DNA of 64,000 nucleotides from Candidatus Heimdallarchaeota archaeon. Lineage in GTDB: Archaea > Asgardarchaeota > Heimdallarchaeia > JABLTI01. A model generated the notes under the pieces. The model was not told the origin of the DNA, ran no database searches, and saw nothing but the letters and a program-made list of their open reading frames with translations. Shown one piece after another: positions 2,751 to 61,244 of this stretch; position 1 is the first letter of the stretch; each line of letters opens with the position of its first letter. The DNA is taken from contig JABCTZ010000019.1 in assembly GCA_018238155.1 (NCBI GenBank), positions 64,001-128,000 on the forward strand. Direction: 5' to 3'. The position numbers and the translations under genes were made by a program.

Positions 2751-2921
2751 AGCTTACAGGCAGAGAAGGAATTTGAACAACTAAAGAAGAAAGCTTACTT
2801 ACTCATTAAAGAAGTATATAGGAATGAATTGGTGAGAATAGCCCGTTTGGATCTCTATGCTTACAAGAAGGAACATAGCTCTGGATTCTACTATCAGATT
2901 GATTTAGATGGAGGATTGTGA
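2751..2921 (+). pseudogene. Headless 3' fragment of an unknown gene
   Basis: Open frame SLQAEKEFEQLKKKAYLLIKEVYRNELVRIARLDLYAYKKEHSSGFYYQIDLDGGL* with no start codon at its 5' end; contains the GGAGG SD for the next gene. Confidence 0.5.
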
Positions 2922-2927
2922 GTTAGA

Positions 2928-4920: not shown

Positions 4921-5046
4921 ATGGGAGTACTGCTAACTGAATTTAAAAAACATCACAAGAAAACAATAGATAAGAATTTGGTTAAGGAATTGAATTATAT
5001 AAGAAAACACATTAGAAATCCTTTAGTTCATCCAGAAATTTACTAA
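4921..5046 (+). pseudogene. Probable HEPN-domain C-terminal remnant
   Basis: Translates MGVLLTEFKKHHKKTIDKNLVKELNYIRKHIRNPLVHPEIY*, with an R-N-x3-H motif. Confidence 0.45.
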
Positions 5047-5111
5047 TAAAAAGAAATAAGGGAAATAAATTCCCTATTTTTCTATAATATACGGTGGTTT
5101 TTTTTAAATTA

Positions 5112-6044
5112 CTAATTAAACCACGTATAGGATGAATAGTCTTCTTTCTGTGGATATGATGGCCAATCATCCTCAGCGTCATCAAAGTTCACTTTAGCAG
5201 CATTAAAAGCCGCTACAGCAGTATATCCATAATCAACCCAGTAAAAGAAGTCATGTGAAAACCTGCCTTCCATGCCATCACCATAATCATGTCTATAAGA
5301 ATAATTATCCGTATCCGAGGAAGACATGACTAAATAAGGTGTTTCATCAAAATCCTCAGGCCAGCCACCAGATTTACACGAATCGACAAAAAGGAACACC
5401 CTTTCTGCTTCCCAATCGTCTAAGTAACCCTTGAATTCCTCTGAAGTTATATTTTGAGTTTCCATATTATCAAAATCAGTAATTGAATTTCCTCCTGAAT
5501 AGTCTCCGTGTCCCATAACATACACAAATATTGTATCCAAAAAAATTACATAATCAGCTATATCTTCACACTTTCCTTCAACATCATCACAATCAGCAAT
5601 TATTTCGACTATAAATCCTTCATTTTCCAATATCCCTTCATATCGTTCCATAGGACCTTGGTCTGCTGCATTATTTGCATAGAAAAGGTAGGCTAATTTA
5701 TAAGCATCAGCCGTCAATTCGAAATCGTATGTTCCTCCAGTAGTAACAGATTCAATCTCTGTATCAAAACGTTCTCCTCTCATAACATAAAGATAATACG
5801 GTGAATAACCACTAAGAGTTGCAGTGAAGCTGTATTGACCATTGCTATCGGTAGTGTCAGCCCCAAGTATATTTAAAAGGCTGTCATAAAGTACAACACC
5901 AGCACCACTTATTGGAATCTCAGATGGGGTCTCAACTGTACCCTGAAAGGTTTTTAAGCCTTGTACTGCAACAAAAGGTGTAGTAATTCCAACTATAATT
6001 AAGACTATCATAAAAAGACTAATTTCTTTTTTCAATTTTACCAT
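5112..6044 (-). CDS. Secreted clan CD (caspase/legumain-like) cysteine peptidase with N-terminal beta-sandwich domain
   Basis: Signal peptide-like N-terminus; carboxypeptidase-regulatory-like segment (GTVET..PISGAGVVLY..TTDSNGQYSF); dyad motifs VYVMGHG and LFVDSCKSGG; GGAGG SD before ATG 6044. Confidence 0.8.
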   Translation of the reverse strand: MVKLKKEISLFMIVLIIVGITTPFVAVQGLKTFQGTVETPSEIPISGAGVVLYDSLLNILGADTTDSNGQYSFTATLSGYSPYYLYVMRGERFDTEIESVTTGGTYDFELTADAYKLAYLFYANNAADQGPMERYEGILENEGFIVEIIADCDDVEGKCEDIADYVIFLDTIFVYVMGHGDYSGGNSITDFDNMETQNITSEEFKGYLDDWEAERVFLFVDSCKSGGWPEDFDETPYLVMSSSDTDNYSYRHDYGDGMEGRFSHDFFYWVDYGYTAVAAFNAAKVNFDDAEDDWPSYPQKEDYSSYTWFN

Positions 6045-6233
6045 TAACTCTCCTCCTTGATTTATCAAAAATAAATAATGGTTGATTATAATCTGTTTTT
6101 TAAAATTTTAAATCTATTGCATTAAAATTGCGAAAATATCTAATGTAAGAATTAAAATGATCTAAATTATCAATTATATTATTGTTTATAGAAAGTGTTT
6201 TCATTTTTTAGGTAATACAAAGATCATAAGTAG

Positions 6234-7871
6234 TTACTTCCGTTTCTTAGAGAAAATGAGTATGATGACAAGTATGAATGCGATTGTTGGCATAACAGCT
6301 ATGAATACCAAGAAACCATCAACAGGATGAGAAGGGGTAGCAGGTAGGGGAGTATCAACATCGGGTAGGGGGGTATCAACAAATTTCACAATAAACATGT
6401 CACTAAAATCACTGGTTGTATTATCATAAGCATTTAAGGTTGGAAATTCAGTTGACCAAGTTTTACCTATAATATAACAACTGCCATTCTCAGCAGTAGT
6501 AATTCCATAACCCATATCAGTTGAATTCCCACCAAGGTAGGTGCTCCAGAAGAGTGATCCAGTAGAGGAAAATTTCATAACAAAAGTATCATAGCCATGT
6601 GCTTTGGAATCATCATACGCATTGAGAGTGGGAAAATTCTTGGAACCAGTATACCCTACGACATAGCAGCTCCCGTTACTTGTGGTAGCAACATCAGAAC
6701 CACGTTCGCCACTACTTCCGCCAAGGAAAGAGCTCCAGAGAAACGAACCATTAGAATCAAACTTGGCAAGAAATGCATCACCGCCCCTCCCATAGGTGTT
6801 GTTATACCCATGTTGTGTCGGAAAATCAGGTGAAGCAGTATAACCTGTGACATAACAGCTGCCATCACTTGCAGTAGTAATGCCCAACGCTTCATCCCAA
6901 TAAATCCCACCAAAGTAGGTACTCCAGAGCAAGGAACCATTCTTGGCAAACTTCGAAAGATAGACATCCCAGTCACCATTCTGGGTAGTATCATAAGCGT
7001 TCTGTGTCGGAAAATCAGGTGATGAAGTAAAACCTGTAATATAGCAGCTTCCATCACTGGTCACAGTAATCCCATATCCCACATCAATTCTGTTCCCACC
7101 AACGTAAGAACTCCACAGAAGGGTACCATTCGAAGCAAATTTGGTAAGAAAGATGTCTTTACTACCACCATTATACGTACTCTCATAGGCATTGAGAGTG
7201 GGAAAATCGCTGGATGTGGTTTCTCCTGTAACATAACAGCTCCCATCAGTCGCAACAGCTATACTATGCCCAATATCCAAGTCACCCCCACCACCAAGGT
7301 AGGTACTCCAGAGTAATGAGCCATTTGCTGCGAACTTGGCAACAAACGCATCAGTTAAACCTCCGTTAAATGTATTATCAAAAGCATTTTTGGTTGGAAA
7401 ATCGCTGGATGTTGTTTCTCCTGTTACATAACAGCTTCCATCACTCGCAACAGCTATGCTACGCGCAACGTCAACCATACCTCCCCCTCCAAGGTAAGTA
7501 CTCCAAAGCAGTGAATTATTACTTGCAAATTTCGTTATTATCGCATCATTGCTACCATTCAAAGTATTATCATATGCATTTTTGGTTGGAAAGTCGCTGG
7601 ATTTGCTTTGCCCTGTGACGTAATAGCTTCCATCGTTAGTCACAGCAATACCTTCTCCATTTTCCCCTCCAGCTTCACCACCAAGGAAGGTGCTATAATT
7701 CAGCTTAGGATAAATAGCTGGTAAAGTTTCAGAACAAGTTACTGTGTGAATAGGATCAAAAGGAAATTTTAGTTGAGGTATTGAAAAAAGTATTATACTA
7801 ATAAGAAGAACAATGCCCAAACGGTTGAGAACCAACCGAAAAGATTTTACCACACAAATCCCCATTAACAT
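6234..7871 (-). CDS. SBBP-repeat beta-propeller surface protein with C-terminal TM anchor
   Basis: Seven repeats of WSTYLGG..D.G..IAV.SDGSCYVTG.T.S.DFPT.NAYD; N-terminal hydrophobic segment; C-terminal TM plus KKRK. Confidence 0.9.
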   Translation of the reverse strand: MLMGICVVKSFRLVLNRLGIVLLISIILFSIPQLKFPFDPIHTVTCSETLPAIYPKLNYSTFLGGEAGGENGEGIAVTNDGSYYVTGQSKSSDFPTKNAYDNTLNGSNDAIITKFASNNSLLWSTYLGGGGMVDVARSIAVASDGSCYVTGETTSSDFPTKNAFDNTFNGGLTDAFVAKFAANGSLLWSTYLGGGGDLDIGHSIAVATDGSCYVTGETTSSDFPTLNAYESTYNGGSKDIFLTKFASNGTLLWSSYVGGNRIDVGYGITVTSDGSCYITGFTSSPDFPTQNAYDTTQNGDWDVYLSKFAKNGSLLWSTYFGGIYWDEALGITTASDGSCYVTGYTASPDFPTQHGYNNTYGRGGDAFLAKFDSNGSFLWSSFLGGSSGERGSDVATTSNGSCYVVGYTGSKNFPTLNAYDDSKAHGYDTFVMKFSSTGSLFWSTYLGGNSTDMGYGITTAENGSCYIIGKTWSTEFPTLNAYDNTTSDFSDMFIVKFVDTPLPDVDTPLPATPSHPVDGFLVFIAVMPTIAFILVIILIFSKKRK

Positions 7872-7920
7872 ACTAACTCAAACATCTATAAATTTTGCTA
7901 CCAGTGAAAAGAAAAATAAA

Positions 7921-8328
7921 TTGTTAGAAATCTGTGGACAATCTTGTAATAATGGACATTGTAATGGTTTTGCTTTTAGTAGGTATAGATTACCCCGTTT
8001 AAAGACTCATGAATTAGAGGGATTAATAGAAGAGAAACAATTCTTCTCATTTTGTTTTCGAGAAGTGAAACAGAAGAAAGATTTTCCGTGTGCGTTACTA
8101 TACTATCTTGGTCATTTAATTGATAATCGAATTATAGATATTGTTAAAGCTCAAATGATTTTGGAGGAAGGTTTAGTTTTCTTTTCAGAACAGAATCATT
8201 TAGAGAAAGAACGTGAAAGCATTAGAAAAAATCTCTCCACTTCTCCATCCGAGAGTCCTTATGGTCTTGATAATGAATTAGAGAAAGATGATTTCAATGT
8301 TGAGGAGTTTGATGATTTTGAGTGGTAG
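7921..8328 (+). CDS. Hypothetical protein, start uncertain or 5'-truncated
   Basis: Open frame with acidic C-terminus overlapping the next gene; the longer ORF call overlaps the SBBP gene start. Confidence 0.5.
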   Translation: MLEICGQSCNNGHCNGFAFSRYRLPRLKTHELEGLIEEKQFFSFCFREVKQKKDFPCALLYYLGHLIDNRIIDIVKAQMILEEGLVFFSEQNHLEKERESIRKNLSTSPSESPYGLDNELEKDDFNVEEFDDFEW

Positions 8329-9340
8329 ATTTTTCGAAGAAAAACATAGGGAATTATTCATTCGAAAATGCCCTCGACCTGCAAGAGAACCTTATACTAA
8401 ATGTCTCTATAATATCTGGAAAGAGTTGATTGATGATCTTCAGGCAATAGACCAAGATTTGGAGAAGGTTATACGAGGAAGGAAAGGAAACAGAGAAGTT
8501 GATCCTTTACTACTAAATGATATTCTACAAGATTTAGAAGTGAAAGTTAGAGAACGATTATTAGAAACAAAAAAGGGAATTGATTTCCTTGAACAAGAAG
8601 GCATAAATGGACTAAAGATGGTTGTCTATTGTGTGCTTAACTGTGGAAAATTGGTTTCTGGTTTCTATAAGAAAAGTAACAAAATCAGTGAAATGAAATT
8701 GGCACTTTTGCACGAGGTAATCATCTATTATTATCTTAAAGGAGATAATAACGTTAGTAATAGTACTATCCAACAATATGAGAAAATGATTGAGAAACGA
8801 AAGAAACTGAAAAAAGAGGGGAAATTAAAGAAAAGAGACCCAGTAGATTTGTCTGTTTTCAAAGAAGTAGAGGAATATGAAACTAACAAAGATACCAAAA
8901 ATACTATTCTTAACGCTTGGGATGATTTCTCAAAGAGAGACGACAAACCGATGTTAGAGAAAATAGAACAAAGAGACGAATTAGAAGATAAGGTCGAATC
9001 TTTAGAAGAGAATATTCTTGATATTGAATCACTCTTAGATTTTAATTTTACTCAAATATTAGAAGGAGATGAAGAATTGACAGATGTTTTACTGGATTTT
9101 TGTCCCAAAGGAGAACGACAAGATTTTACTTGTGAAGTAGATAATGAATTTTACAATCTTGTGTCAACAAGATTAATCCATTCTTTTCTGAAGAATACAG
9201 AATTATTCAAAGAGATAGATTTGACAGCAGAGTGTCTTGTAGAAGAAAAACCAGATGTCACTAAACTTCGAAGGAAAGTAGACTTGTATATTCGAAGGTA
9301 CGGAAAACATTGGGACTGGACTCCAGAATTAAAGAATTAG
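8312..9340 (+). CDS. Hypothetical helical protein (island)
   Basis: Long ORF; GAGGAG SD at 8302-8307; no recognised motif. Confidence 0.75.
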   Translation: MILSGRFFEEKHRELFIRKCPRPAREPYTKCLYNIWKELIDDLQAIDQDLEKVIRGRKGNREVDPLLLNDILQDLEVKVRERLLETKKGIDFLEQEGINGLKMVVYCVLNCGKLVSGFYKKSNKISEMKLALLHEVIIYYYLKGDNNVSNSTIQQYEKMIEKRKKLKKEGKLKKRDPVDLSVFKEVEEYETNKDTKNTILNAWDDFSKRDDKPMLEKIEQRDELEDKVESLEENILDIESLLDFNFTQILEGDEELTDVLLDFCPKGERQDFTCEVDNEFYNLVSTRLIHSFLKNTELFKEIDLTAECLVEEKPDVTKLRRKVDLYIRRYGKHWDWTPELKN

Positions 9341-49220: not shown

Positions 49221-52200
49221 TTAGAATTCTATTGAGTCAATTTCACTTAGAAATTCCTTTAAGATATTTTCAGACACTCCATCTACTTCTATTTTTTTCA
49301 TTTTCTCCTCTTGGAGAGCTAATTCTTCGAGTTTTTTACGCTCTTGTACTGCTTCAGAATTTGAATCTACACTTTCACTTTTCACGTTTTCTTCTACTAG
49401 TGATAGAACCCAATTATCAAGTAAATCTTCATCTAATCCTTGTAAAAGATTTTTTAAAGTAGATTTTACTTCTGCAGGGGTATCTTTTGTAGGATCTTTT
49501 GAGTAAACAAGTGGGGCAATGTATTTACCTCGACGTCGTTTAGCACCTGGCACAGGTAAAATTGGTTCTTCTCTATGCTTCTTTGCTATTGCTGCTTTTC
49601 TGTGCCAAGTACCATCTTTTTTATTAAATTCGACTTGTTTTGTTGAACCTGATGCTTTTACCATCTCGAAAATATGTGCAACTTTATTTTTTGAGAGCAT
49701 CAAATAAATGATCAATTTCATACGCTCATTAGAAGAGAGTTTATCCAATGATCCCTCATTTACCTTTGCTTTTAGAACAGCTTTTTCTTCGGAAAGTAGT
49801 TTAGATTCATCAATGGAAATATCAAGTAAATCAATCATTTCTGCTGTTAATTCTTTTTTAGGAGCAAATTCTTTCTGAATCTTCTGAAAATTTCGTTGCA
49901 TTTCAAGTGGTAATTTTTCAATGATTTGATTAGATGTTCCCGCTTTTCCGAGTAACACTGCTATTGTTTTATAACAGTCTATTGTCCAGCTTTCTAATGC
50001 TCTCATAGCTCGTCCACGTAATTGTTGCCACGCTGTAACATCTCGAGTTGCGGTAGCATCAATAAGAATATCTGGTGTTCGCACATCCCATCCAGTTCTA
50101 GCCCATGCGGAAACAAATATTAATTGAATTGGTAGCTCTTCTGAATCCAAAAAATCAGATACTAGGTCGTAAATTAATTGTTTTTGCCTTCCAGAAGGCA
50201 TTTTCAAATAATAATAATCTACTAAATCACCAGTTGCAGTTTGTAAGACACCTTTATTTGCAAATTCAATTTTTCGTGCAATAATTCCATAATCGTAAAG
50301 TTTGAGAACAATATTGTCAATACGAATAGAGGGGTTTGCAATACGATCCTTTAACAGCTTTATAGAAAGATTTAGTGCGTCATCCATAACAGTCATTTCA
50401 TCAATGAAATCCCCTAAAGGTTCAAACACCTTATTTGCAAACTCCGAAAATCTGGCTCGATATACTTTTCTTAATGATTTGGCATAGGTGCTCATCAATT
50501 CTTTGAATGTTAAATACATGAAATTACTTAATTGTTCTTGGAACGGCAGTTCAAAAATCAATTCCATGAAAATTCGTTCAGTTAATTTATCAACTATAAC
50601 TTCATTTCGTACGAACTCAGCCATCATTATGTGTAACGGTTTTTCAAGTTCCGGATTAAAACTAATATACATTTCAGAAGATTGTACAGCAATTGGATTA
50701 TACTTTAATATATTGGTACTCAAACTTTGAGCAAAGCTACCTCCAACACCAGAAAACCCTGGAGAACCTATACCCGTATCATCTTCAACCTTGATAGTTC
50801 GTCCTGTATCAAATATAACTACTCCTTTCACATCTCTGATTTCTTCTTCTGCATTGATAATTGATTGGAATGTTCCCACACGTCCCTCGCCTATTTTTGT
50901 TCTAGCCCAGGTGTCTAATGTTTTGTATATTCCGACCATAGTTGAACACATAATCTTTCTAACTTTCTTTGATGTTTCCTTTCTATCTTTACTTTCTTTG
51001 CGAATATCGTAGAATGTTTTTCGTTTAGGCATTCGTTTCCCATATTTTTCACTTTTTATCATTTTTTGAAGGCTGGGGATACGAATTAATTGTTCAAGTC
51101 GCATTACTAATTGTTCTGTCTCTTCAACGATTTCTCGTGCCGCATTGGCGTGTTGAGAATTATAAGCTAATGAAATATCTGACCAGCTATTGTAGATTTG
51201 TACAGTCTGTACTAGATTCGTATCAATAAGTGATAGAGGTCTTTTTTCTCTATTTGGTGACCAGTCAAGGAATTTAGATTTTAATTTTTCATTAACCATA
51301 TCTCTTCGATAACTTTGATACATACCAAGTAATTCTTTACAAATGAATAAACGGTCATTCATGGGAATCTTTTGGAATTCCCTTCGAAGGTTATTATCTC
51401 CAAAATAATTCCATAATTGCTTCATATTCATTTTAAGCTCGTTATGCAATTCTCTGATAGCCTTTTCTCGTCCTGAATAAGCAAAAGTGACTCCTAATTC
51501 TGCTATAGGTGCAACAAATCCATGCATAACTAATTCTTTTTCTGGGACAATGTAAATGAGTTTCAATTTTAACTTCTTGAAATCTTTTTCATAAGCTTTA
51601 GCTGTACCAGAAAAACCAATGAGGTTCTCTATATGAGCTCCTTTAAAGATCTTAACTAATCGTTTAGCAACTTCGTTAGTTGCACTTCCTTCTTGTTCAA
51701 CGATTTTGTGGGCTTCATCGAAAATAACATGCCTAATACCTAACCAATTAATTAATTGTCTAAGTTCTTTTTCTTTCTTAGTTTTTGCTCCTAATACTTG
51801 AGCGAGAGAAGTATAAGTAAGAATTATTATTGGTGGAATTTCTCTTGTCTTTTGAATGAAATTTTCAAGCTGGGTAATCGTTCCAGAAAATACAAAACTT
51901 GGTGAAATCTGTAATCCAATTTCATTGAAGCAAATTGAATCTACCCATTGGGATTGATAATTTTGTGTTGGAACCAGTACTAAGATTGATTCATTGAAAC
52001 GTAACTTGCGGGTCCAATCTTGGATACACATCATTCCCATTAGTGTTTTACCTGAACCTGTTGGGGAGTCAATAATATTGCCATTATACTTTTCTCCTTT
52101 AAACATATAATAGGCTTCTAATTGGTATGGTCGAGGAATTGGAGAATTAATTATGTCTTGATGTGGAATTTTGAGAATATCTATTTTTGGTTTTTTCACC

Positions 52201-53450
52201 TTTGTTGTTTTTGCTACTTTTTCCTTTCTTTCAACAACATCTCCTGTTGTAGTTTCCTCGCTTTTATTTTGTAATTCCTTCACCTTTAAGCGTTTAGCGA
52301 TGAGGGATTTTTGTTCATTAAGATTAACTTCCTTTGGTCTTGCTTCTTCCCTTCCAATTCTTTCACGAAGAATACCGATAGAAATAGTCGTCATATCAAG
52401 CTCAAAATGCAAATCATCAAGTAAGATTTTTTGAAGTTCATCAAGTTTACCATAAACATCCTCAATTCGATAAAACCCATTTTCCTGCAATCCCTTGTAT
52501 ATTTCAGGTGGGAATAAAGCAGAAAGCTCTTCCCGACCAATATCTTCTCGACGATACATCTTCACATCGGGAGCAAAAGTATACTCGAATATTATATCTG
52601 GTATTGCTGCAGTTATTTCTGCTGGAATATAAGGAAGTGGAGGTGGAGCTAAATCAATCACCCTTTCTATTTTTTTGATGAATTCTTCTTCAACAAGAGT
52701 TTCAAGATAGAATTGGATAGATTCTGCCTTTAGTAATTCTAAAACGAATTTTTCCTCACCTTGTTGAACTTCCCTCAGAATTTCTTTGATGCTCAATGGA
52801 ATACTGCTTTTCTCAAGTATTTCAACAAGAACATCTTTTACGTATTCTTTTCGCATTTCCATATCAATTGTTTGTGGTTTTGGGATAACTTTTGAATTCA
52901 TTCGATGCATTTCGATTAAAACATCGTACAACATTCGAATATTTAGTAACATTACTCTTCCACGGAGCATATCATTTTGAGCGAGTGCATCACGATATGC
53001 CTCCACAGAACGCATATACATTTTGTTTGTTCGCCAAAAATATTTTAACTGCTGCTCTTCAGCATTTTCTTTTAAAACTCTGCTAAATTTCTCTTGTACA
53101 GTTGTACAATAACCTGTTGCATTCCAGAAATCATCTGCCCCTAGTACTTTGAAAATATCTTCCTCAGAAGTAACTTGATTAAGCATATCATCTACACTTT
53201 TGGTAGCTTCTTTGGTCTTCTTAAGTTCAATTACCTGTCTCTCGAGATCTTTTTCTTCATCGAAGAGTGGTTGGTCTTCCTCTACAACTGCAAAAATATC
53301 TGGGCTATATTCTTCCATATAGACGTTTTCATCTGTGACTTTATCATCTTCTGTTGTAATAATATCTTCAATTGGCGTATCAGGTTCAATCTCTTCTTTT
53401 TTGAAGACCCTTTTTATCCATCCGAAAAATCTCTTAAACATGTTTTGCAC
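49221..53450 (-). CDS. Large SF2 DEAH helicase (ResIII/XPB-like) with long N-terminal extension
   Basis: RPYQ, SPTGSGKT, LVPT, DEAH, GFSGT, TGWD, QLRGRAMR. Confidence 0.9.
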   Translation of the reverse strand: MQNMFKRFFGWIKRVFKKEEIEPDTPIEDIITTEDDKVTDENVYMEEYSPDIFAVVEEDQPLFDEEKDLERQVIELKKTKEATKSVDDMLNQVTSEEDIFKVLGADDFWNATGYCTTVQEKFSRVLKENAEEQQLKYFWRTNKMYMRSVEAYRDALAQNDMLRGRVMLLNIRMLYDVLIEMHRMNSKVIPKPQTIDMEMRKEYVKDVLVEILEKSSIPLSIKEILREVQQGEEKFVLELLKAESIQFYLETLVEEEFIKKIERVIDLAPPPLPYIPAEITAAIPDIIFEYTFAPDVKMYRREDIGREELSALFPPEIYKGLQENGFYRIEDVYGKLDELQKILLDDLHFELDMTTISIGILRERIGREEARPKEVNLNEQKSLIAKRLKVKELQNKSEETTTGDVVERKEKVAKTTKVKKPKIDILKIPHQDIINSPIPRPYQLEAYYMFKGEKYNGNIIDSPTGSGKTLMGMMCIQDWTRKLRFNESILVLVPTQNYQSQWVDSICFNEIGLQISPSFVFSGTITQLENFIQKTREIPPIIILTYTSLAQVLGAKTKKEKELRQLINWLGIRHVIFDEAHKIVEQEGSATNEVAKRLVKIFKGAHIENLIGFSGTAKAYEKDFKKLKLKLIYIVPEKELVMHGFVAPIAELGVTFAYSGREKAIRELHNELKMNMKQLWNYFGDNNLRREFQKIPMNDRLFICKELLGMYQSYRRDMVNEKLKSKFLDWSPNREKRPLSLIDTNLVQTVQIYNSWSDISLAYNSQHANAAREIVEETEQLVMRLEQLIRIPSLQKMIKSEKYGKRMPKRKTFYDIRKESKDRKETSKKVRKIMCSTMVGIYKTLDTWARTKIGEGRVGTFQSIINAEEEIRDVKGVVIFDTGRTIKVEDDTGIGSPGFSGVGGSFAQSLSTNILKYNPIAVQSSEMYISFNPELEKPLHIMMAEFVRNEVIVDKLTERIFMELIFELPFQEQLSNFMYLTFKELMSTYAKSLRKVYRARFSEFANKVFEPLGDFIDEMTVMDDALNLSIKLLKDRIANPSIRIDNIVLKLYDYGIIARKIEFANKGVLQTATGDLVDYYYLKMPSGRQKQLIYDLVSDFLDSEELPIQLIFVSAWARTGWDVRTPDILIDATATRDVTAWQQLRGRAMRALESWTIDCYKTIAVLLGKAGTSNQIIEKLPLEMQRNFQKIQKEFAPKKELTAEMIDLLDISIDESKLLSEEKAVLKAKVNEGSLDKLSSNERMKLIIYLMLSKNKVAHIFEMVKASGSTKQVEFNKKDGTWHRKAAIAKKHREEPILPVPGAKRRRGKYIAPLVYSKDPTKDTPAEVKSTLKNLLQGLDEDLLDNWVLSLVEENVKSESVDSNSEAVQERKKLEELALQEEKMKKIEVDGVSENILKEFLSEIDSIEF

Positions 53451-53597
53451 AGTCCTAGCTACGCGAGACTATTTTATGATATTCTCTTCATTTTTTACTT
53501 TATTTATCAACTAAAATAGAGTAGTTGATGTTAAATGATAGTAATAACTACCTCATCTTCAAAATCTTAAAATGTTGAAGTGGTTTTTTAATATATC

Positions 53598-54335
53598 CTA
53601 TTGGATATGAAATTGTTTTTTGATTACTTCTTTTACTATCGATTCCAATGATTTCATTAGTGGATTAAAGGAGCTTGGTCTATATTTTCGTTTAAAATGC
53701 CCGTTGGTATCTAAAAGGATGTCTCGAGGAGTGTTCCGCAAAATCTGCTGTAAGTCACTTTTTGCTTGTTGGCAAGAACCATTAAAGATATGATCTTTCA
53801 AATTTGGGAACAAATCACTAACTCCTGCACTCTCAAAGAGTTGCTGTATGTGTCGTTGGGATATTTTTCTGCCCCAAGGTAAATCTTGTTTATTAACGAA
53901 AACGGTAAATGGTATTTTCTTATTAATGATATCCTCACCCTTCAATTCTTTTAATTCTCTAAGTGACCAAATGTTTTCTTCCCAATTATCTAAATCAGCA
54001 TCTATGACTATTACTAATCCATGAATGCCTTGTAAAACAACTTTTCTAGTTTCTCGTAATCTTCTTTGTCCTGCAGTTGTAAAAACATGGATTTTGAAAA
54101 GATATTCATCAGTTTCTGGTTTCGCACCAAATCCAAAAACTGCCTGATCAAAGAATACAGTTCTACCGGTTTGCTGGTCTGCAACAGTAACAAAATCGAA
54201 TACTCCTTTGGGATTCTCTAAAGATTTCATAACCTTAACAGCTGTTATTGTAAATGTTTTTCCAGACATTGTCGGACCCCAATAACAGATTTTTAAGGAT
54301 CTTATTGTTCGATATTTATGTATTAGCACAATCAA
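53598..54335 (-). CDS. MglA-type small GTPase
   Basis: KICYWGPTMSGKT, GRTVFFD, TTAGQ, NKQDLP. Confidence 0.88.
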   Translation of the reverse strand: MIVLIHKYRTIRSLKICYWGPTMSGKTFTITAVKVMKSLENPKGVFDFVTVADQQTGRTVFFDQAVFGFGAKPETDEYLFKIHVFTTAGQRRLRETRKVVLQGIHGLVIVIDADLDNWEENIWSLRELKELKGEDIINKKIPFTVFVNKQDLPWGRKISQRHIQQLFESAGVSDLFPNLKDHIFNGSCQQAKSDLQQILRNTPRDILLDTNGHFKRKYRPSSFNPLMKSLESIVKEVIKKQFHIQ

Positions 54336-54426
54336 ACCTCAAGTTAGTTTTTTTTCGCTATTTGTATTAATTAAAGATACTTTTTGCATACAAAAAATGT
54401 TTTGATTTGACATTTTCCATTTGTTA

Positions 54427-55545
54427 TTATTCTATAGGAATTATTGCTTCCCCACACTTGGAGCATTTATCTGCCCAAGGAATTCTTGCATTGCATTGTG
54501 AACATATCCGTAAGATTTCAGTAGATTTGCTGGTTGGAGTAAGGATGGGTTCTGGAATAGGATATATCATAAGTGGTTGTGGGTCAGGTATCTTATCAAT
54601 TTCAATTTCTTTCTCATCAATAGTACCTTTAATTCTGTCAATATATGGATTAACTAAATCTAATCTTTTGTTAGCGGCTTCTAATAATTCGGTATTATTT
54701 TCAGAAAGTTTTGCTGCGTTTTCAAAATAACTTCTAGCTTTCAGTAAATACATATAGGCTTTATCTGATTCACTTCGATTTGAAAGTCCGACTGCAATAT
54801 AGAAACAAGACATTCCCAATTCAGTAGAAGCCAGTATTTTCACTCGATTGTCAGATTCTTCTGGAAGGTCAAAATTCATCATAGCAAATTTATAAGAAGC
54901 TGCACCCGCGAAAAGCTTCGATGCTTTGTCAAAATCACCTTGTTTACGAGCTAAAAATGCTTCTGATTTTGTAATTTCTGCTTCAATTTCCAGTTTCCTT
55001 AACAAAAGCATTTGGTAGAACGGTTTTGCATAATGATTTTCTTGATCTGGTGATAATTTTTCAATAAATTCTATAGCGCTTAGTAGTGCTGCTAATGATG
55101 AGATATGATAATATCTATACTGTAAACTAGTTTGAACATTTGATATGGCTCTTGATTGATAGACTGCAGATACAAGATAAAGTAGAATGGCTATTTCATA
55201 ATTCTCTTCTACAACTCTACCAAGATATCCATCATCTAAAGAAATCCAGCGAGTTTTTAGGCCTATAGCTTCAAATTTTGTTTTTCCAAAGCTATTAGCA
55301 AATATATTTGAGATTGTTTGCAATGCTTTTATTTGACTTGATGAATTTTTAGATGGAAAAATTTGTTCTACATATTCTGGAAGGGTTGCTTTTAATTCAG
55401 AAATAATTTTCACTGTCTTTTGATTTGCACTCGTTTCATCAATAGTTTCAATGAGTTTCAGAAAACCTATCAAGAAATCTTTCTCTTCTTCAAGATATAT
55501 GGAAATCAATTTTGGGTCAAAGGGAATTTTATAAAGGGCTTTCAT
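54427..55545 (-). CDS. Alpha-helical (TPR-like) protein with C-terminal Zn ribbon
   Basis: Ala-rich helical repeats, Pro-rich linker, CSQC-x8-CSKC. Confidence 0.72.
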   Translation of the reverse strand: MKALYKIPFDPKLISIYLEEEKDFLIGFLKLIETIDETSANQKTVKIISELKATLPEYVEQIFPSKNSSSQIKALQTISNIFANSFGKTKFEAIGLKTRWISLDDGYLGRVVEENYEIAILLYLVSAVYQSRAISNVQTSLQYRYYHISSLAALLSAIEFIEKLSPDQENHYAKPFYQMLLLRKLEIEAEITKSEAFLARKQGDFDKASKLFAGAASYKFAMMNFDLPEESDNRVKILASTELGMSCFYIAVGLSNRSESDKAYMYLLKARSYFENAAKLSENNTELLEAANKRLDLVNPYIDRIKGTIDEKEIEIDKIPDPQPLMIYPIPEPILTPTSKSTEILRICSQCNARIPWADKCSKCGEAIIPIE

Positions 55546-55568
55546 TTGTTAATCACTTCTTTCCAATA

Positions 55569-56258
55569 TTATTCAACTATGATGATTGCCCCAATTGCAT
55601 CATCTAAGGATGGCCTATCAGGCATCATTTCTTTCTTGGTTTTTTCATTTGTTTCTACTTTCTTTAATTGAGGAGGACCACCGCGAGCTGGTCTATCTAC
55701 GCTAGGAGCTGGTCTTGATCTTGTTGTTGCAGCAGTTGTAGTACCTGAGGTTGGATGTGTTGCTGGTTGGCCATCCCTCAAGTCTGTCATGACTTTGGTC
55801 ATTACTTCAGCAAATTGACCAAAAACAGCTTGTAATGATTCTGAATCTTTCGATTCTTCTGAACTACCTGTATTTAAGCCATAAATTCCACGTTCGATTC
55901 TCATTTTCAATCTAATAGAATCGCGAACCCATTCAGCTCTTCCTCTGGTGGCAACATTTTCATTAATATATTCAATAATGTCCATGTGTTTAGCTGGACT
56001 AAGAGTAACAACAATATTCATTGTTTCAGAACTAATTGTTTCTGTTTTGTCACCTTTCAATGAAATGCTACGTTTTATAGTTGAGATTAGAGTTCTTCTT
56101 TTGCCTTTATTCAAATCTCGACTAACTTCTTTTGATTCTTCTTTCCACTTCTGTGGAATTGTCTTCTTCGACTTTTTACTTGAAGTACTCTTCTTCTTCT
56201 TTTTTTTATCTTTGGAAGTTTTGGATGTTGGTTTTTTAGAGCTCATTGAATCCATCAT
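55569..56258 (-). CDS. ParR-like ribbon-helix-helix protein with Lys-rich N-terminus and disordered tail
   Basis: NIVVTLS...DIIEYIN.....RAEWVRDSIR (strand-helix-helix); overlaps the 3' end of the actin-like gene. Confidence 0.65.
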   Translation of the reverse strand: MMDSMSSKKPTSKTSKDKKKKKKSTSSKKSKKTIPQKWKEESKEVSRDLNKGKRRTLISTIKRSISLKGDKTETISSETMNIVVTLSPAKHMDIIEYINENVATRGRAEWVRDSIRLKMRIERGIYGLNTGSSEESKDSESLQAVFGQFAEVMTKVMTDLRDGQPATHPTSGTTTAATTRSRPAPSVDRPARGGPPQLKKVETNEKTKKEMMPDRPSLDDAIGAIIIVE

Positions 56259-57309
56259 CTCCTAATCTATTCACAAAAGTTCTTGCGAACATTTCAAATC
56301 CCATAGCATTAGACATTACGGGATCCTCTGGCATTGCAAGCATTTCTGGGTGATCAGCTAAACCTGCTTGTTCAAATCCTGCTCTTAATCGGTCACCAAA
56401 AATATGCATACCTCCTCCACAAAGGATGACTTTTTCTATAATTGCATCAGGTGGCAAAGTGCCTATTAATCGGTTTACTTCATCCAAAATGACATCTGAA
56501 ATAATTTCTATATGATATTCTTTCATACTTGCAATATCCCATTTTTCTCCTTGAATTGTAAGAATGTCTTTTTGCTGAGAAAGAGATGTCATAAGATCAA
56601 AAGGGCGAATTATTTTACCCGTTTGATTTTGCAATTCTTGGGCAATTCTATGTGTTAGAGTGTCGGTTGCTTCTTCTAAGCTCCCCGAAGCTTGACGCAT
56701 AATTCTTCCTTCGTACAAGGTTAAGATGTCTGTTGAACCATGTCCAACATCGATAACAATAGCATCTACCGCTCGCGCCTCCCCTTCAGTTTTAAGGGTG
56801 TGATAATACGTTCCAAAAGGCTCTGGCATTACTATGCAATTTTTTATTGTTAATTTCCGGTGAAATTTTTCACCAGTAGCTTCATTTTCAATTTTAAGAT
56901 CTAAATCTCCTTTCAACCCTTTAGCAAGTTTAGTCATTTCCTTTTTAGAAGAAGCTACAGGTACACCTGTTGCCATAATAATTTGATCGTGATCTTTTTT
57001 AGTAATTAAAGCAAGAACCGCTTTTATTGCTAAGATAGCATCTTCAATACTTTTTACTTTCCCTTCGCTAGCTATTGCTCGTTTTATTTCGCTCTGTAAT
57101 CTTGCAAGTTCACCAACATAAAGACTCTTTTCTCCATCAGAAATAACTAAATTTTTCTCTAAAGATTTATCGCCACTAAATCCACTCCAACCTTGTAATG
57201 GAGTGCCAACTATAGAAGGAATCTTCTTTAGGTTATCGGCACAAGAGAGTTTTATTGTTGATGTTCCTAAATCGATACCAATTGCTCGATATGTGGGTCT
57301 TAAAGACAT
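56236..57309 (-). CDS. ParM/StbA-family actin-like ATPase
   Basis: Phosphate-1 GIDLGTSTIK, TGVPV, connect-1 MPEPFG, phosphate-2 IDVGHGSTD, adenosine LCGGG, connect-2 DPVMSNAMGF. Confidence 0.92.
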   Translation of the reverse strand: MSLRPTYRAIGIDLGTSTIKLSCADNLKKIPSIVGTPLQGWSGFSGDKSLEKNLVISDGEKSLYVGELARLQSEIKRAIASEGKVKSIEDAILAIKAVLALITKKDHDQIIMATGVPVASSKKEMTKLAKGLKGDLDLKIENEATGEKFHRKLTIKNCIVMPEPFGTYYHTLKTEGEARAVDAIVIDVGHGSTDILTLYEGRIMRQASGSLEEATDTLTHRIAQELQNQTGKIIRPFDLMTSLSQQKDILTIQGEKWDIASMKEYHIEIISDVILDEVNRLIGTLPPDAIIEKVILCGGGMHIFGDRLRAGFEQAGLADHPEMLAMPEDPVMSNAMGFEMFARTFVNRLGDDGFNEL

Positions 57310-57571
57310 TGTGTATTTACTTCCCCCTAAGGGTTGAATTTTGTATTATATTATTAACTAGATTTTAATACACTTAAAACCTATTGAATTATTCATACAT
57401 AATAGTAAAAAGTGTTGCCATTTTAGCATATAATTTCACTATGAAATAGACTTCTGTGGAACAACTTTTAATATTCATTTAATATTCGAGTATATGTAGT
57501 TTTATTAAAACGGATTTTTATTTCAAAAAGCATTAATTATAAAAATCAAGAAATATTGTTGGTGTGTAAAG

Positions 57572-57853
57572 ATGTTCAAAGATTTATCAACAAAAGAGCT
57601 AAAAGACCTATATGCTAATCGACCATGGATAAATAAAACAGCGTTAACAAATCTCTTTTTGTCTGCTTTTGCAGAAGCAGTTATTCCTGCATTGGATAAA
57701 GCCATGGAACGAATGTACAAAATTCTTTCAAGTACTGAATTCATTGCAAAAATGGAAGAGGAAGTAATTGACGAATCTGTTGCTCGAGTAATTGAAATGA
57801 TAAAAGACGAACTTCGTGAAGAGATAGTTAAAGGAATGGCTTTTGAAGAATGA
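57572..57853 (+). CDS. Small helical hypothetical protein, divergent from the actin-like gene
   Basis: 93-aa ORF with GGTG upstream and a short hairpin downstream. Confidence 0.7.
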   Translation: MFKDLSTKELKDLYANRPWINKTALTNLFLSAFAEAVIPALDKAMERMYKILSSTEFIAKMEEEVIDESVARVIEMIKDELREEIVKGMAFEE

Positions 57854-57911
57854 GCTTAGAGAGATAAACTCTCTTTCACTATTCTTGTTTTTCTTTGTAA
57901 AAAACTCCAGC

Positions 57912-58583
57912 TTATTCTCTAATTTTTGGTTTTACTGATTTCACCCAATTAATCCATTCATCCATTGACTCATTTCTTTTTAGTGCAACTGAGAAAGTGA
58001 GAATTTCCGGTTGGATTTCTTTTGCATGGTTGAAGAGAATTTTCTCTGTGAAATCTGGAAAATATTCCAATAGATCTGCTTTAGTAATTACTACAACATC
58101 AGCTTCCTTGTAAATAACTGGATATTTCTTTGGTTTATGTGGTCCTTCGGGTACACTAGCAATAATTACTCGATAATCTTCTCCAAGATCATGTGAGGAT
58201 GGGCAAACTAAATTTCCAACATTTTCTATAAATAATATATCAATACTAGATAGATCCATTTTTTTCAAAGCATTTCTGATTAATGGTGCATCTAAGTGAC
58301 ACATTCCACCAGTATTAATTTGAAGAACATCTACTCCAAGAGCCATAATTCTTTCAGCATCAATAGTTGTTGCTAGATCTCCTTCAATAACAGCTATTTT
58401 CTTTTCCCCTTGTAATCTTATAATGGTATTTTCAATGAGAGTTGTTTTTCCACCACCAGGTGATCCCATAATATTAATACAAATGAGGTTATTTGCTCTA
58501 AGTAGAGCTCTATTTTCGTCAGCGATTTGTTCATTTATTTTTGCTACTCTCTCTAATACAGGAATTTTTTTTGTTTTGTTCAA
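57912..58583 (-). CDS. hypB: Hydrogenase nickel-insertion GTPase HypB
   Basis: GSPGGGKT, IEGDL.T..DA, NTGGMCHLDA, ENVGNLVCP, ITKAD. Confidence 0.96.
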   Translation of the reverse strand: MNKTKKIPVLERVAKINEQIADENRALLRANNLICINIMGSPGGGKTTLIENTIIRLQGEKKIAVIEGDLATTIDAERIMALGVDVLQINTGGMCHLDAPLIRNALKKMDLSSIDILFIENVGNLVCPSSHDLGEDYRVIIASVPEGPHKPKKYPVIYKEADVVVITKADLLEYFPDFTEKILFNHAKEIQPEILTFSVALKRNESMDEWINWVKSVKPKIRE

Positions 58584-58868
58584 TTTCAGTATCTCAAATT
58601 CATTAAAGAAACGATGAGCTAATTTAATCTAATGTAATTTCTTATTATTAATACTACAGAAATAACCTTTCTTTAATAAAAATTGGTGTGATTTGAGAAG
58701 TGCAGATAATGACATTCAGTTGTGTACATATGAAATTTGATGAAATCTGGAGTTAACTTTTAAAGTTGGGTGTACATTAACTAATTGTAACATTCAAAAT
58801 AGATATCAAGTATGTGAGAGGAATCTCTCTATAGTAAAGATTTGCTAGTGTTATCGGGGAAGCTCTTC

Positions 58869-59501
58869 ATGGAATCCGTTAATAAAACCGACTTTAAACC
58901 TAGGATAGAAGAAAATTATCTAAAAATAGTTTTAGTGGGTGATTCTAATGTTGGCAAAACTACTCTTCTTAATGCATTAGTCGGTTCCGGAGAAACAGGG
59001 CGGGGGTATTCAGTCTCGCTTGAGATACCTATTGAAATAAAGAAAGGAGATAAGAAAGAACTTGTTGTTGGAAGGATTTATGATTTAAGATCTCAACGAT
59101 ACTTTCCTTTTCTACACTCTCTGTATTATAATAATGCAAAGGGAGCAATTATTGTTTTTGATATTACAGATAAGAATTCATTCAAATCATTAACAAAATG
59201 GCGCGATATTATTTGGGGGCATGTTGGGAATATTCCTCTACTTGTTTGTGGAAATAAAACCGATCTAAAAAATTCAAACGAAGAACAGGTTTTCCAACAA
59301 GAAGTACTAGCATTAATAAAATCATTTTCTAAAAATCGAGCAATGAAAACAACCTATATTGAACTGTCTGCTGAAAAAAGGATAATTGCATATACAGCTG
59401 AAAAAATGAAGAAATCACAATTGAAAGATATTTATCCAACAATCGATGCATTTAGAGACCCATTTGTACATTGGATTAAGGGACTTGCAAAGAAAACATG
59501 A
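58869..59501 (+). CDS. Rab/Ras-like small GTPase with degenerate G3
   Basis: KIVLVGDSNVGKT, IYDLRSQ, YY..A.GAIIVFDIT...SF, GNKTD, ELSA. Confidence 0.88.
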   Translation: MESVNKTDFKPRIEENYLKIVLVGDSNVGKTTLLNALVGSGETGRGYSVSLEIPIEIKKGDKKELVVGRIYDLRSQRYFPFLHSLYYNNAKGAIIVFDITDKNSFKSLTKWRDIIWGHVGNIPLLVCGNKTDLKNSNEEQVFQQEVLALIKSFSKNRAMKTTYIELSAEKRIIAYTAEKMKKSQLKDIYPTIDAFRDPFVHWIKGLAKKT

Positions 59502-59590
59502 AATTCAAAAGTCTTTATAGGCAAGTGTTACTTTTAGTAAATAGATGCGATGTTAGAATTTTCAACGAAATAGAAAAAAGATGAGTAAAA

Positions 59591-60580
59591 ATGATTCAAT
59601 CGGTAATAGTGAATGATGAAGCGTATCAACAAATGTTCAAATATGTCATTGAATTTGCTAATCCTGAAAGACCATATAGACAATGGAGGGAAGTGATTGG
59701 CTGGCTTGTTGGTAAGGTAGAAGGTGAGACTGTAACAGTAATCAAAGCTATTCCGATGACTAGTGGAAATTCTATTTTCGTTGAAATGTCTGATTATACC
59801 ATTATTCCAAAGATTGCAGAGGAAGCAGAAAGTATCAATGCTGTTATTGTCGGTTGGTTCCACAGCCATCCCTCATTTGGTTTTTTCTTATCTGGAGTTG
59901 ATATCAGAACACAACGTTATCAGCAAAGTCTATTTGATAATGCAATCGCCTTAGTCTGCGATCCAACAAAAATAACTTCGATAGAATCAGGAATTCACGG
60001 GTATCAAGTATATATGGATGAAGAACATAGAGGAAGAGAATATCGGGAATTAGATATTCTAATAGAAACTGAAGCTATGTACCCTGACCTTCTTTCTAAA
60101 TTCTTGGAAGAACAAGGAATTACACGATCCTTCTCAGATGCTATCTCACATGAAGAACTTTCAGCATTATATGCTCTCGAAGGAATTACACCACCACAAT
60201 TGGCTGCATTAAAAGCGAAACAATTATTGCCTTCCGAACAAAGTGCTAGACCAGTATTAGAAGGGGAGTATATTGTTAGTGATTTAATCAAAGCAAAAGA
60301 AGATTGTTATATTCAAATACGAATATCAAATACTGGCAAGGGTGTTGCTTGGTCAGTTGATCTTAATTTTAATCCAGGATTAGATTTTAAATTGTTTTCA
60401 ATGTATCCTCATCGAATAATTGATCAATTGAATTACGAAACTACTATCATTGAAACTTTCAAATTAAAACCTGTGAGAAAAGGGGAATTGCTTCTTCCTA
60501 GAACAATAATCAATTATAAATTAGCAAATGAGAAGCGGTACTATATTGTTGTACCTGCGCTCACAATCCTTGCAATATAG
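59591..60580 (+). CDS. JAMM/MPN+ metalloprotease fused to a C-terminal Ig-like domain
   Basis: EVIGWLVG, GWFHSHPSFGFFLSGVDIRTQ; C-terminal ISNTG..A..V.L. Confidence 0.9.
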   Translation: MIQSVIVNDEAYQQMFKYVIEFANPERPYRQWREVIGWLVGKVEGETVTVIKAIPMTSGNSIFVEMSDYTIIPKIAEEAESINAVIVGWFHSHPSFGFFLSGVDIRTQRYQQSLFDNAIALVCDPTKITSIESGIHGYQVYMDEEHRGREYRELDILIETEAMYPDLLSKFLEEQGITRSFSDAISHEELSALYALEGITPPQLAALKAKQLLPSEQSARPVLEGEYIVSDLIKAKEDCYIQIRISNTGKGVAWSVDLNFNPGLDFKLFSMYPHRIIDQLNYETTIIETFKLKPVRKGELLLPRTIINYKLANEKRYYIVVPALTILAI

Positions 60581-60601
60581 GAAATAAAAAATTGAAATGA
60601 A

Positions 60602-60627
60602 AAATCACTTATATTTACAAGTGATTT
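60602..60627. terminator. Hairpin between convergent genes
   Basis: AAATCACTT-atatttac-AAGTGATTT. Confidence 0.5.
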
Positions 60628-60638
60628 AATTCTTTCTC

Positions 60639-61244
60639 TTATTTTTTAGCCCGACGATCTTTTACCCAACCAACAATACCCAGAACGATAAAAGATAGAA
60701 TTCCAATCGAAAGCAAGACTAGAACTGCCCAAATATAAACTGGTGAGGGTGGTCTTTTGTATTGTACAGTAATCGTTGCATTTTCACTGAATGGTCGTAC
60801 AAATGGAGTTTCAACTACGCTTTCAATATTAATGAACAGGATATTCACCGATAGATTATAACTTCTACCGATAGTGAGGTTCATCATTGTTTGAAAATAA
60901 ATTGTTTTTGCTTCAAAAGGAGTAACTCTATAGCGAGGGTCATCTTCCGCAAATTGTTCAGAAGAAACTAAAGTAGTTTCAATAGTTCCATTATCATATG
61001 TATATTCAAAGTCTACTCTCAGTTGAGTTATTCTAAATATATCTTCTGAGTGATTATTGAATATTGTACCTCCAAAGAGATAATCATCTTTTTGATAAAC
61101 ATCTCCATTTGGGGAGATAAGATCATAAAAAACTAAGTCTCCGTTAGCTCCAGAAACTATGTTTAAGTGTTGTGGTTGGAAAACCATTGACAGAGAAAGT
61201 AAACAAGTGATAATGAAAATAACATAAGCTGTCTTTTTGTTCAT
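60639..61244 (-). CDS. Type I membrane protein, TRAP-alpha-like
   Basis: Signal peptide, Ig-like ectodomain with NxS/T sequons, TM, basic tail; start at MNKKTAY. Confidence 0.65.
   Translation of the reverse strand: MNKKTAYVIFIITCLLSLSMVFQPQHLNIVSGANGDLVFYDLISPNGDVYQKDDYLFGGTIFNNHSEDIFRITQLRVDFEYTYDNGTIETTLVSSEQFAEDDPRYRVTPFEAKTIYFQTMMNLTIGRSYNLSVNILFINIESVVETPFVRPFSENATITVQYKRPPSPVYIWAVLVLLSIGILSFIVLGIVGWVKDRRAKK

Follow-up and report, generated by a model that had tools for sequence, protein, structure and literature searches.

The stretch of Candidatus Heimdallarchaeota archaeon DNA analysed here, termed the window, comprises 64,000 nucleotides (contig JABCTZ010000019.1, positions 64,001–128,000) with a G+C content of 32–36%, and encodes on its minus strand a 229-residue protein, referred to here as the adaptor, whose gene lies directly downstream of a gene for an actin-like ATPase of the ParM/ALP family (ALP). 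The adaptor combines a ribbon–helix–helix (RHH) core with a conserved two-part C-terminal tail, which recurs on other proteins and is distributed over genomes together with the ALP clade. We consider it probable, at roughly 0.6, that this is a chromosomal ParR-like adaptor, the two-part C-terminal peptide of which docks on the neighbouring ParM/ALP filament protein. Nearly every homologue of the adaptor and of ALP that carries a source name comes from a Heimdall-group or another Asgard assembly. The two genes and the segments of the adaptor are arranged as follows.

55569–56258, minus strand: ParR-like adaptor gene, 229 residues as listed (open reading frame and translation)
56236–57309, minus strand: ParM/ALP-family actin-like ATPase gene, 357 residues, presumed target of the tail (Pfam, PDB relatives)
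56109–56246, minus strand: N-terminal extension, Lys/Ser/Thr-rich, low-complexity, variable in length (alignment; predicted local distance difference test, pLDDT, <50)
55890–56027, minus strand: RHH core, residues 78–123 (domain model and structural matches)
55776–55844, minus strand: third helix, residues 139–161 (conserved; helix predicted with low confidence)
55686–55775, minus strand: Thr/Pro/Arg-rich linker, residues 162–191 (no conserved columns; pLDDT <50)
55653–55685, minus strand: tail element 1, RGGPPQLKKVE, residues 192–202 (consensus GGPPx[LIV]KK[VI][ED]; holds LKKV)
55626–55652, minus strand: charged spacer, residues 203–211, nearly fixed in length, including the non-conserved TNEK
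55572–55625, minus strand: tail element 2, MPDRPSLDDAIGAIIIVE, residues 212–229, with the free C terminus (most strongly conserved part)

Residues 198–206 of the adaptor (55641–55667, minus strand) read LKKVETNEK, the string that the preliminary description of this DNA had singled out for its likeness to the actin-binding motif of thymosin β4, and translation of the open reading frame (ORF) reproduced the string, its flanks and its position. The C-terminal part of the protein reads ...RSRPAPSVDRPARGGPPQ-LKKVETNEK-TKKEMMPDRPSLDDAIGAIIIVE and then stops; the Thr/Pro/Arg-rich stretch is followed in turn by RGGPPQ, the motif and the final segment, which closes with ...PDRPSLDDAIGAIIIVE. Met5 is nearly invariant among aligned homologues and is probably the true start, at 56246; the overlap with the ALP gene, 23 nucleotides (nt) as listed, is 11 nt when counted from this Met, the same as in the orthologous loci.

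The tail is second only to the RHH core in conservation, and the linker lacks a single conserved column in the alignments. Of 79 homologues with an intact end, retrieved by a representative search down to ~33% identity, 77 preserve the core [LIV][KR]K[VILM][ED], 75 have PPx[LIV][KR]K and 68 have GGPP; the two motif lysines are retained by 76–79. The distance from the LKK core to RPxL(D/E)D is 14–19 residues, with a mode of 18. Within element 1, P196 and K200 are invariant, and G193, P195, K199 and E202 reach 90% conservation or more. In element 2, residues P213, R215, P216, L218 and D220 do not vary, not even among homologues at 24–35% identity, the family consensus being KP[DE]RPxLDDA[IM]xxI[IV]V.E with a nearly invariant terminal segment. 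Further upstream, the alignment contains the nearly invariant core MNIV(I/V)TLSPAKH.DIIEYI...GGRAEWVRDSIRLKMRIE and, around GQFAEVM, a helix that is likewise conserved. In the 3441 crude ORFs of the genome, LKK[VT]E is found a single time, where composition predicts 5.3. Because the LKK core is conserved at a fixed spacing, beside a variable linker, and is found only once in 3441 ORFs, it is under selection. Alignment of orthologues had been set beforehand as a test of the motif, and it returned the expected pattern, with LKK(V/I)E and the terminal segment conserved and the linker variable.

The longer, thymosin-like string behaves differently from its core. The 9-mer LKK[VT]ET.EK is present in 3 of the 79 representatives only, the closest relatives, and elsewhere motif positions 6–9 vary (T/V/I/S, K/E/D, E/D and D/K/E/S, respectively). 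The warning given with the motif, that a nine-residue string in a Lys-rich protein can arise by chance, thus fails for the core and holds for the full 9-mer, which does no better than chance.

The RHH core was modelled separately because the full-length AlphaFold2 model, with a mean pLDDT of 55.6, was too poor for use. Modelled alone, the core reaches a pLDDT >90 for residues 84–123 and consists of an extended segment, MNIVVTL, followed by two helices (residues 92–101 and 104–122). Compared by VIA-align with 48,161 representative solved chains, this model ranked pSK41 ParR first (2q2k_B; Z 5.4, root mean square deviation 1.3, 44 aligned) and pB171 ParR second (2jd3_B; Z 4.7, root mean square deviation 3.5, 50 aligned), which are the two solved ParM-type partition adaptors (PMC3074162). 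Ranks 3–20 are almost all RHH proteins, such as TacA, PutA, CopA, NikR, omega, ORF56 and AmrZ; the Z values for ParR are modest, in keeping with a domain of 45 residues, and other RHH proteins lie within about 1 unit of them. A Foldseek search with the core returned nothing significant, its best match being pB171 ParR (2jd3_A, E 3.9), and in an ESM Atlas feature search the nearest Pfam-bearing clusters were RHH/CopG at 0.82–0.83, below the trustworthy level. Neither the single sequence nor a 45-sequence profile matched any entry in Pfam, NCBIfam or the PDB, including any known ParR family. Judged on the model, the assignment of the RHH fold is sound, and the label ‘ParR-like’ rests on the fold and the gene context together. 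The earlier proposal of a ParR-like RHH adaptor adjoining an actin-fold gene is borne out by the fold match and by the Pfam matches of the neighbouring ALP protein.

Beyond the RHH core, the third helix contains the invariant residues G147, Q148 and F149 and is a possible oligomerisation element. In the tail, AlphaFold2 places a short helix at residues 218–222, with a pLDDT of about 55–60. The last residues, AIIIVE (TVIVSVE in relatives), are rich in β-branched side chains, so the end of the adaptor could equally form a strand. Of the terminal amphipathic helix described earlier, there remains this short, low-confidence helix, followed by an end that is possibly a strand.

The ALP protein matches the Pfam families ALP_N (56.2 bits, cut-off 26.3) and MreB-like_C (52.6 bits, cut-off 27.8), and its best solved relatives are pCBH ParM (3.5e-6), Dh-cParM1, Ta0583 and CorM (9rmi, E 0.003). 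It scores 70 bits against the NCBIfam ParM model PRK13917, far under the cut-off of 417, and is therefore taken as a member of the family and not as an orthologue of plasmid ParM. The same genome encodes a bona fide actin (G000:C45:43051-44163; PF00022, 445.6 bits) and an Arp-like protein. The idea that ALP is an intermediate between ParM and actin found little support, its likeness to the genome’s own actin being confined to a BLAST match of E 0.001 over 50 residues of the phosphate-2 region.

Gene context ties the adaptor closely to ALP. Across 301 sampled genomes of the phylum, covering 30 taxonomic families, the adaptor family (family A) is present in 10 of 10 genomes of the window’s own taxonomic family, and the ALP gene is directly upstream of the adaptor gene in 11 of 11 loci there; outside this taxonomic family, only two weak, tail-only matches to the adaptor were found. 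Two further ALP paralogues are encoded in the window’s genome (G000:C15:223140-224234 and G000:C3:82359-83408), neither with a tail-bearing neighbour, and most genomes of the genus have three ALP genes.

The tail is not confined to the adaptor. A six-frame scan of the genome for proteins ending in [RK]PxL[DE]D within 30 residues of the stop yielded exactly two, the adaptor and the following protein on another contig.

G000:C19:93405-94118 (L013:1486-2199), minus strand: 237-residue protein, denoted family B, unlinked to the adaptor; 45 homologues

This protein has an RHH-like N-terminal pattern and an RPLLDDVL..VIV end. The family B tail reads ...RDLG.APKIG.AK.IDG....[DE]RPLLDDVLDTVIVSVE, so that element 2 is held in common with the adaptor and the Lys pair of element 1 is lost in most members. 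Family B was expected to lie beside an ALP gene in other genomes, which proved not to be so; its conserved neighbours are a lipoate-protein ligase and, in other genomes, proteasome subunits. Further carriers were found with a profile built from the tails only. Family C comprises mutually homologous proteins of 397–434 residues, one of them with sub-threshold TPR matches, from Loki-type and other Asgard families; their tails read ...PEI(K/D)(K/I/V)VEG....RPKLDDMLD.IIV.E, and their genes are directly downstream of ALP genes in genomes G183 and G240 and not in G297. In the sister taxonomic family, proteins of ~305 residues end in ...DLDLSDAI.EGE....PPDRPDLE(D/E)VLDDILISG. The invariants over all families are a Pro followed two residues later by Leu, Ile or Val (P-x-[LIV]) and then R-P-x-L-x-D, laid out as a P-x-hydrophobic element, about 10–15 residues, and RPxLDD with a hydrophobic end. 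Element 1 is basic in family A, neutral in family B and acidic in the sister family. Its lysines are thus lineage-specific, since the wider tails read APKIGxAK, PEIDVVEG or DLDLSDAI in their place, and LKK(V/I)E is one lineage’s form of a P-x-hydrophobic-x-x-hydrophobic-(E/D)-G element.

Searched with an ALP profile and a tail profile, the 301 genomes gave overlapping distributions. The ALP clade is found in families f1 (10 of 10 genomes), f2 (27 of 29), f5, f14 (2 of 68), f21, f24, f26 and f29, and was not found by its profile in the large families f3, f4, f11 and f17. The tail is matched in f1, f2, f5, f14, f24, f29 and f30; three matches of the tail hidden Markov model in f18 were false, arising from an internal KRPSLDDVFLAYTGRAL of a different protein, and were excluded. 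Six of the seven tail-positive families are also ALP-positive, and 21 of the 30 have neither (Fisher’s exact p = 0.0003, a value used here for description only, since related genomes are not independent, the result depends on thresholds and many of the genomes are incomplete).

Complex prediction for ALP (57-row alignment) with adaptor residues 186–229, using author-made alignments, gave scores of 0.48, 0.69 and 0.42 (median 0.48), with at least 66% contact agreement between runs and a partner pLDDT of at least 55; the best of three controls with unrelated proteins was 0.06. The pass mark for this score is reached by 58 of 80 solved complexes and by 2 of 110 mismatched pairs, and passing scores of 0.60 or below are obtained by only 7 of the 80 solved complexes and by both passing mismatches. 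As ParM–ParR peptide complexes are in the PDB, likeness to known structures may add to the score. Given the strong prior from gene context, the predicted complex raises the odds of docking somewhat; on the position of LKK(V/I)E it is silent.

Several observations weigh against docking of the tail on ALP. The family B proteins and the ~305-residue tail proteins of the sister family are not encoded beside ALP genes, and two genomes, G276 and G297, have a tail match with no ALP match at E <= 1e-20. The window’s genome has three ALP genes and only two tail-bearing proteins; the notion of one tail protein per ALP gene, suggested by a PF00022 search that gave two of each, was dropped when the ALP profile returned three ALP genes. 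The complex prediction, which is the sole direct computational test of binding, was graded ‘weak support’ and came without a contact map, and the terminal residues of the tail may be a strand and not a helix. Finally, a search of the 260-nt region upstream of ALP and of three orthologous regions revealed no parC-like iteron array, so that a centromere-type role is conjectural; a distant or degenerate centromere is possible. The alignment of the four orthologous upstream regions does contain one conserved element.

57385–57395, no strand assigned: palindrome TGAATAATTCA (consensus ATGAATTAATTCAT)

It is located just downstream of a TATA-like TTTTTAC box, ~80 nt upstream of the ALP start (region 57385–57413), and is a candidate operator for the RHH protein; it would seem more operator-like than centromere-like.

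In the mechanism proposed here, an RHH dimer would bind DNA, possibly at the conserved palindrome, and if so it would regulate its own operon. The free C-terminal RPSLDDAIGAIIIVE segment would insert into the hydrophobic groove of ALP, in the manner of the peptides of ParR, CorR and arcadin-2, perhaps as a short helix followed by a strand-like end, and element 1, 14–19 residues upstream, would provide a second, hydrophobic-plus-basic contact with the same or the next ALP subunit. A DNA-bound (or self-regulating) adaptor would thereby be coupled to the filament, with capping or nucleation (as for ParR), recruitment (as for CorR) or sequestration (as for arcadin-2) as candidate outcomes. The data show the sequence, its pattern of conservation, the RHH fold match, the adjacency of the two genes, the recurrence of the tail and its co-distribution with the ALP clade; it is the binding itself, its site on ALP and the role of element 1 that we infer here.

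The adaptor and ALP genes are part of a larger cluster. Three orthologous loci (L001, L003 and L004), on chromosomal contigs of 72–876 kb, were compared with the window for synteny. The cluster begins with genes for a JAB protease, a Ras-like GTPase, a CobW/HypB-type GTPase, a 93-residue protein on the opposite strand, and ALP, and continues after ALP with the adaptor, a helical protein of ~372 residues, an Arf/Ras-superfamily GTPase of ~244 residues and an SF2 helicase of ~1400 residues. This ~12-kb order (window positions 49221–61244) recurs in two fully covered loci, and in the third, which is cut by a contig end, it holds from the 93-residue gene onward. An order of this length, conserved between loci, points to a single functional system that extends beyond a ParMR pair. 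Two of the cluster members bear on the identity of the docking partner.

54427–55545, minus strand: next gene after the adaptor, 372-residue helical protein with a C-terminal Zn ribbon and no tail of its own (conserved cluster)
53598–54335, minus strand: small Arf/Ras-superfamily GTPase, 245 residues, cluster member (Pfam Arf 29.2 bits, Ras 24.5 bits)

The 372-residue protein has weak Pfam matches only (DUF2225, DZR and TPR), all of them sub-threshold. Synteny of its gene is kept in L001 and L004; at this position L003 has a 370-residue gene on the opposite strand. Homology of the protein to the Loki-type tail-bearing TPR proteins was considered and is undetectable (E 0.71). In a complete sister-family genome, locus L049 (G026:C1:1288500-1296500; ORFs 880–1638 and 1756–2802) has a 252-residue small GTPase directly upstream of the single ALP gene and no RHH gene after it; this GTPase and the 245-residue GTPase of the window have the segment GRTVFFD in common. 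The link between GTPase and ALP is thus older than the adaptor, being present in the sister family without an RHH gene.

Three further arrangements of tail and ALP genes were seen in other genomes. At L016 (G183:C17), in a Loki-type genome, two divergently transcribed ALP paralogues lie side by side (ORFs 1605–2654, minus, and 2763–3785, plus), and a tail-bearing protein of 429 residues with sub-threshold TPR matches follows one of them. At L017 (G297:C193; ORFs 1210–3534, 4981–7401 and 7451–8518), 9.5 kb around a tail-bearing protein of 397 residues contain no ALP gene; its neighbours are two Arf/Roc-like GTPases, an 806-residue TPR protein with Zn-ribbon-like CxxC pairs and a 355-residue coiled-coil protein, the C-terminal part of the latter (IWVWKGQSAS...) being gelsolin-like by eye and unconfirmed by Pfam. 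At L006 and L007 (~5001–7600), the distant adaptor paralogues P0085 and P0086, with tails of the form ...L(K/R)KM(E/D)G...RPxLDDAMDS.IVG, are convergent to another ALP paralogue, which is followed by a ~237-residue protein of a different family.

The best-surviving alternative is that the tail docks on a partner other than ALP—the co-clustered small GTPase, the 372-residue helical/Zn-ribbon protein or a hub protein that these lineages share—in which case adjacency to ALP would mean a shared pathway only. Linkage of a small GTPase gene to ALP is seen in the window’s family and in the sister family alike, tail proteins of family B and of the sister family are encoded away from ALP genes, the G297 tail protein has two GTPases and a TPR/Zn-ribbon protein as neighbours and no ALP gene near it, and the complex score for ALP is itself weak. 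This alternative is nevertheless unlikely: the tail is co-distributed with the ALP clade and adjoins ALP in all 11 family A loci and in 2 family C loci, unrelated-protein controls score at most 0.06 against 0.48 for ALP, and there is strong precedent for the binding of ParR-like C-terminal peptides to ParM-like proteins.

We regard as distinctly improbable a second alternative, in which only element 2 (RPSLDDAIGAIIIVE) docks on ALP and LKK(V/I)E has a separate role, for which a DNA or RNA contact, a regulatory or modification site and an intramolecular contact that masks the tail were considered. Element 2 is indeed invariant over the tail families while element 1 changes from basic through neutral to acidic, and a single short C-terminal peptide suffices in the known systems. 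Against this, the families preserve both the P-x-hydrophobic start of element 1 and the distance between the two elements, for which one composite binding surface is the simplest explanation. Two other possible motif matches, a SUMO-type psi-K-x-E site and an ESCRT MIM motif, were checked by eye and do not fit.

The remaining alternatives concern the WH2 and β-thymosin families of actin-binding motifs, to which the preliminary description had proposed a link. In WH2 domains, which bind monomeric actin at its barbed-face cleft, an amphipathic helix of about three turns, just N-terminal to LKK(T/V), occupies the hydrophobic cleft of actin. AlphaFold2 predicts no helix before LKKV in the adaptor; the preceding residues are RPARGGPPQ, with a conserved Gly-Gly-Pro-Pro, as the caveat attached to the original proposal had correctly stated. 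The order of the two parts is inverted relative to WH2, the motif coming first and the sole helix-like segment lying C-terminal to it. On the motif, the Pfam WH2 profile (PF02205) gives 12.6 bits against a cut-off of 23.1 (E 0.12), covering profile positions 17–27 of 28; no Thymosin (PF01290) match was obtained up to E 10, and the whole protein matches neither profile. An LKK(T/V)-type core is kept within family A (77 of 79), with the lysines lost in the tails of families B, C and the sister family.

In thymosin β4, LKKTETQEK corresponds to residues 17–25 and its two lysines are critical (PMC2174335). Seven of the nine residues match this string in the window’s genome and its closest relatives, yet beyond LKKxE the likeness is coincidental, a chance match on top of the conserved LKKxE and an acidic/basic spacer. 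The peptides of ParR and arcadin-2 occupy the groove between subdomains IA and IIA that corresponds to the site of WH2, thymosin, gelsolin and cofilin on actin, and they lie in it in the direction opposite to thymosin β4 (PMC5173319). An identical string read from N to C terminus would for this reason not make equivalent contacts. The groove analogy between ParR and WH2 drawn earlier is legitimate in the sense of ‘works like’, the site being the same (PMC5173319), and the likeness of the tail to WH2 and thymosin would at most be a functional analogy, in which an extended motif and a groove-binding segment engage an actin-fold protein. Membership of the WH2/β-thymosin family is not supported by the sequence: the proposed relationship falls on the sub-threshold WH2 score, the missing Thymosin match, the lack of a preceding helix, the inverted order and the lineage-specific lysines.

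The tail might still be an archaeal counterpart of the WH2/thymosin mode with reversed chain direction, its terminal segment binding the groove of an actin-fold protein and LKK(V/I)E contacting the surface, and in Heimdall-group archaea it may also engage true actin. We hold this to be very improbable; if true, it would connect the actin cytoskeleton with a ParMR-like system based on DNA or filaments and provide a prokaryotic precedent or ancestor for LKKV-type actin regulators. Least probable of all is that LKK(V/I)E is a true, perhaps homologous, WH2/β-thymosin contact that binds real actin, or ALP in WH2 fashion, and links the ParMR-like system to the actin cytoskeleton: a bona fide actin and an Arp-like protein encoded in the genome, the thymosin-critical lysines in 76–79 of 79 family A members, the weak touch of the WH2 profile and the actin contact of the WH2-like LRRV of Asgard gelsolins (PMC7444086) are outweighed by a partial match far below cut-off with none to Thymosin, by the absent upstream helix and inverted order, by a 9-mer in only 3 of 79 members and lysines lost in the other tail families, by a tail distribution that follows the ALP clade, by the antiparallel course of the ParR and arcadin-2 peptides and by the remote similarity of ALP to actin.

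The proposed docking of the two-part tail on ALP has counterparts in three known systems: in ParR of R1, CorR (residues 150–162) and arcadin-2 (residues 187–203), a free C-terminal peptide binds an actin-like partner (PMC5173319; bioRxiv 10.1101/2025.06.27.661541). Like type II ParR proteins (R1, pB171 and pSK41), the adaptor has an RHH core and is encoded downstream of, and overlapping, a ParM-family gene, and its flexible linker ends in a conserved free C-terminal peptide, which in R1 ParR binds the groove of ParM (PMC5173319). Unlike ParR, it is chromosomal and archaeal (Heimdall-group Asgard), lacks detectable ParR sequence similarity and has a long Lys-rich N-terminal extension; its tail is in two parts and occurs also on non-RHH proteins, no iteron-type parC was found upstream of ALP, and the cluster includes GTPases and an SF2 helicase.

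CorM and CorR of Anabaena sp. PCC 7120 likewise form a chromosomal ParM-like and ParR-like pair, CorM being a relative of the window’s ALP. CorMR is a chromosomal ParMR repurposed as a cortical cytoskeleton, in which CorR residues 150–162 are needed to recruit CorM (bioRxiv 10.1101/2025.06.27.661541). CorR differs from the adaptor in having an N-terminal membrane-binding amphipathic helix and no DNA binding, whereas the N terminus of the adaptor is Lys/Ser-rich and basic, and the two systems belong to different domains of life and gene neighbourhoods.

Arcadin-2 of Pyrobaculum is, like the adaptor, an archaeal protein with a C-terminal peptide, residues 187–203 of which bind the groove of a co-clustered actin-fold protein; its authors liken its function to that of thymosin β4 and consider convergence probable (PMC5173319). 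In contrast to the adaptor, it has no RHH domain and no sequence similarity, targets crenactin, a close relative of actin, and depolymerises it. In common with WH2 and thymosin proteins, the adaptor carries a short L-K-K-(V/T)-E within disordered, Pro-flanked sequence and has an actin-fold protein, here an ATPase, as its presumed partner; unlike theirs, that partner is by genomic evidence ParM-like and not actin.

Asgard archaea attract study because of their eukaryote-like actin system. Alongside it, many of these organisms retain chromosomal genes for ParM-like filaments, on which no paper was found in the literature searched. Present evidence does not move the origin of WH2/thymosin domains back into archaea; what it supports better is a probable docking tail, portable and associated with ALP, at the end of a chromosomal ParR-like adaptor. 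A portable tail peptide would give a sequence handle on the interactome of the filament and would supply defined mutants, one lacking the tail and one with LKK changed to AAA. It would extend a theme known from ParR, CorR, arcadin-2 and WH2, in which short peptides regulate actin-fold proteins via a hydrophobic groove.

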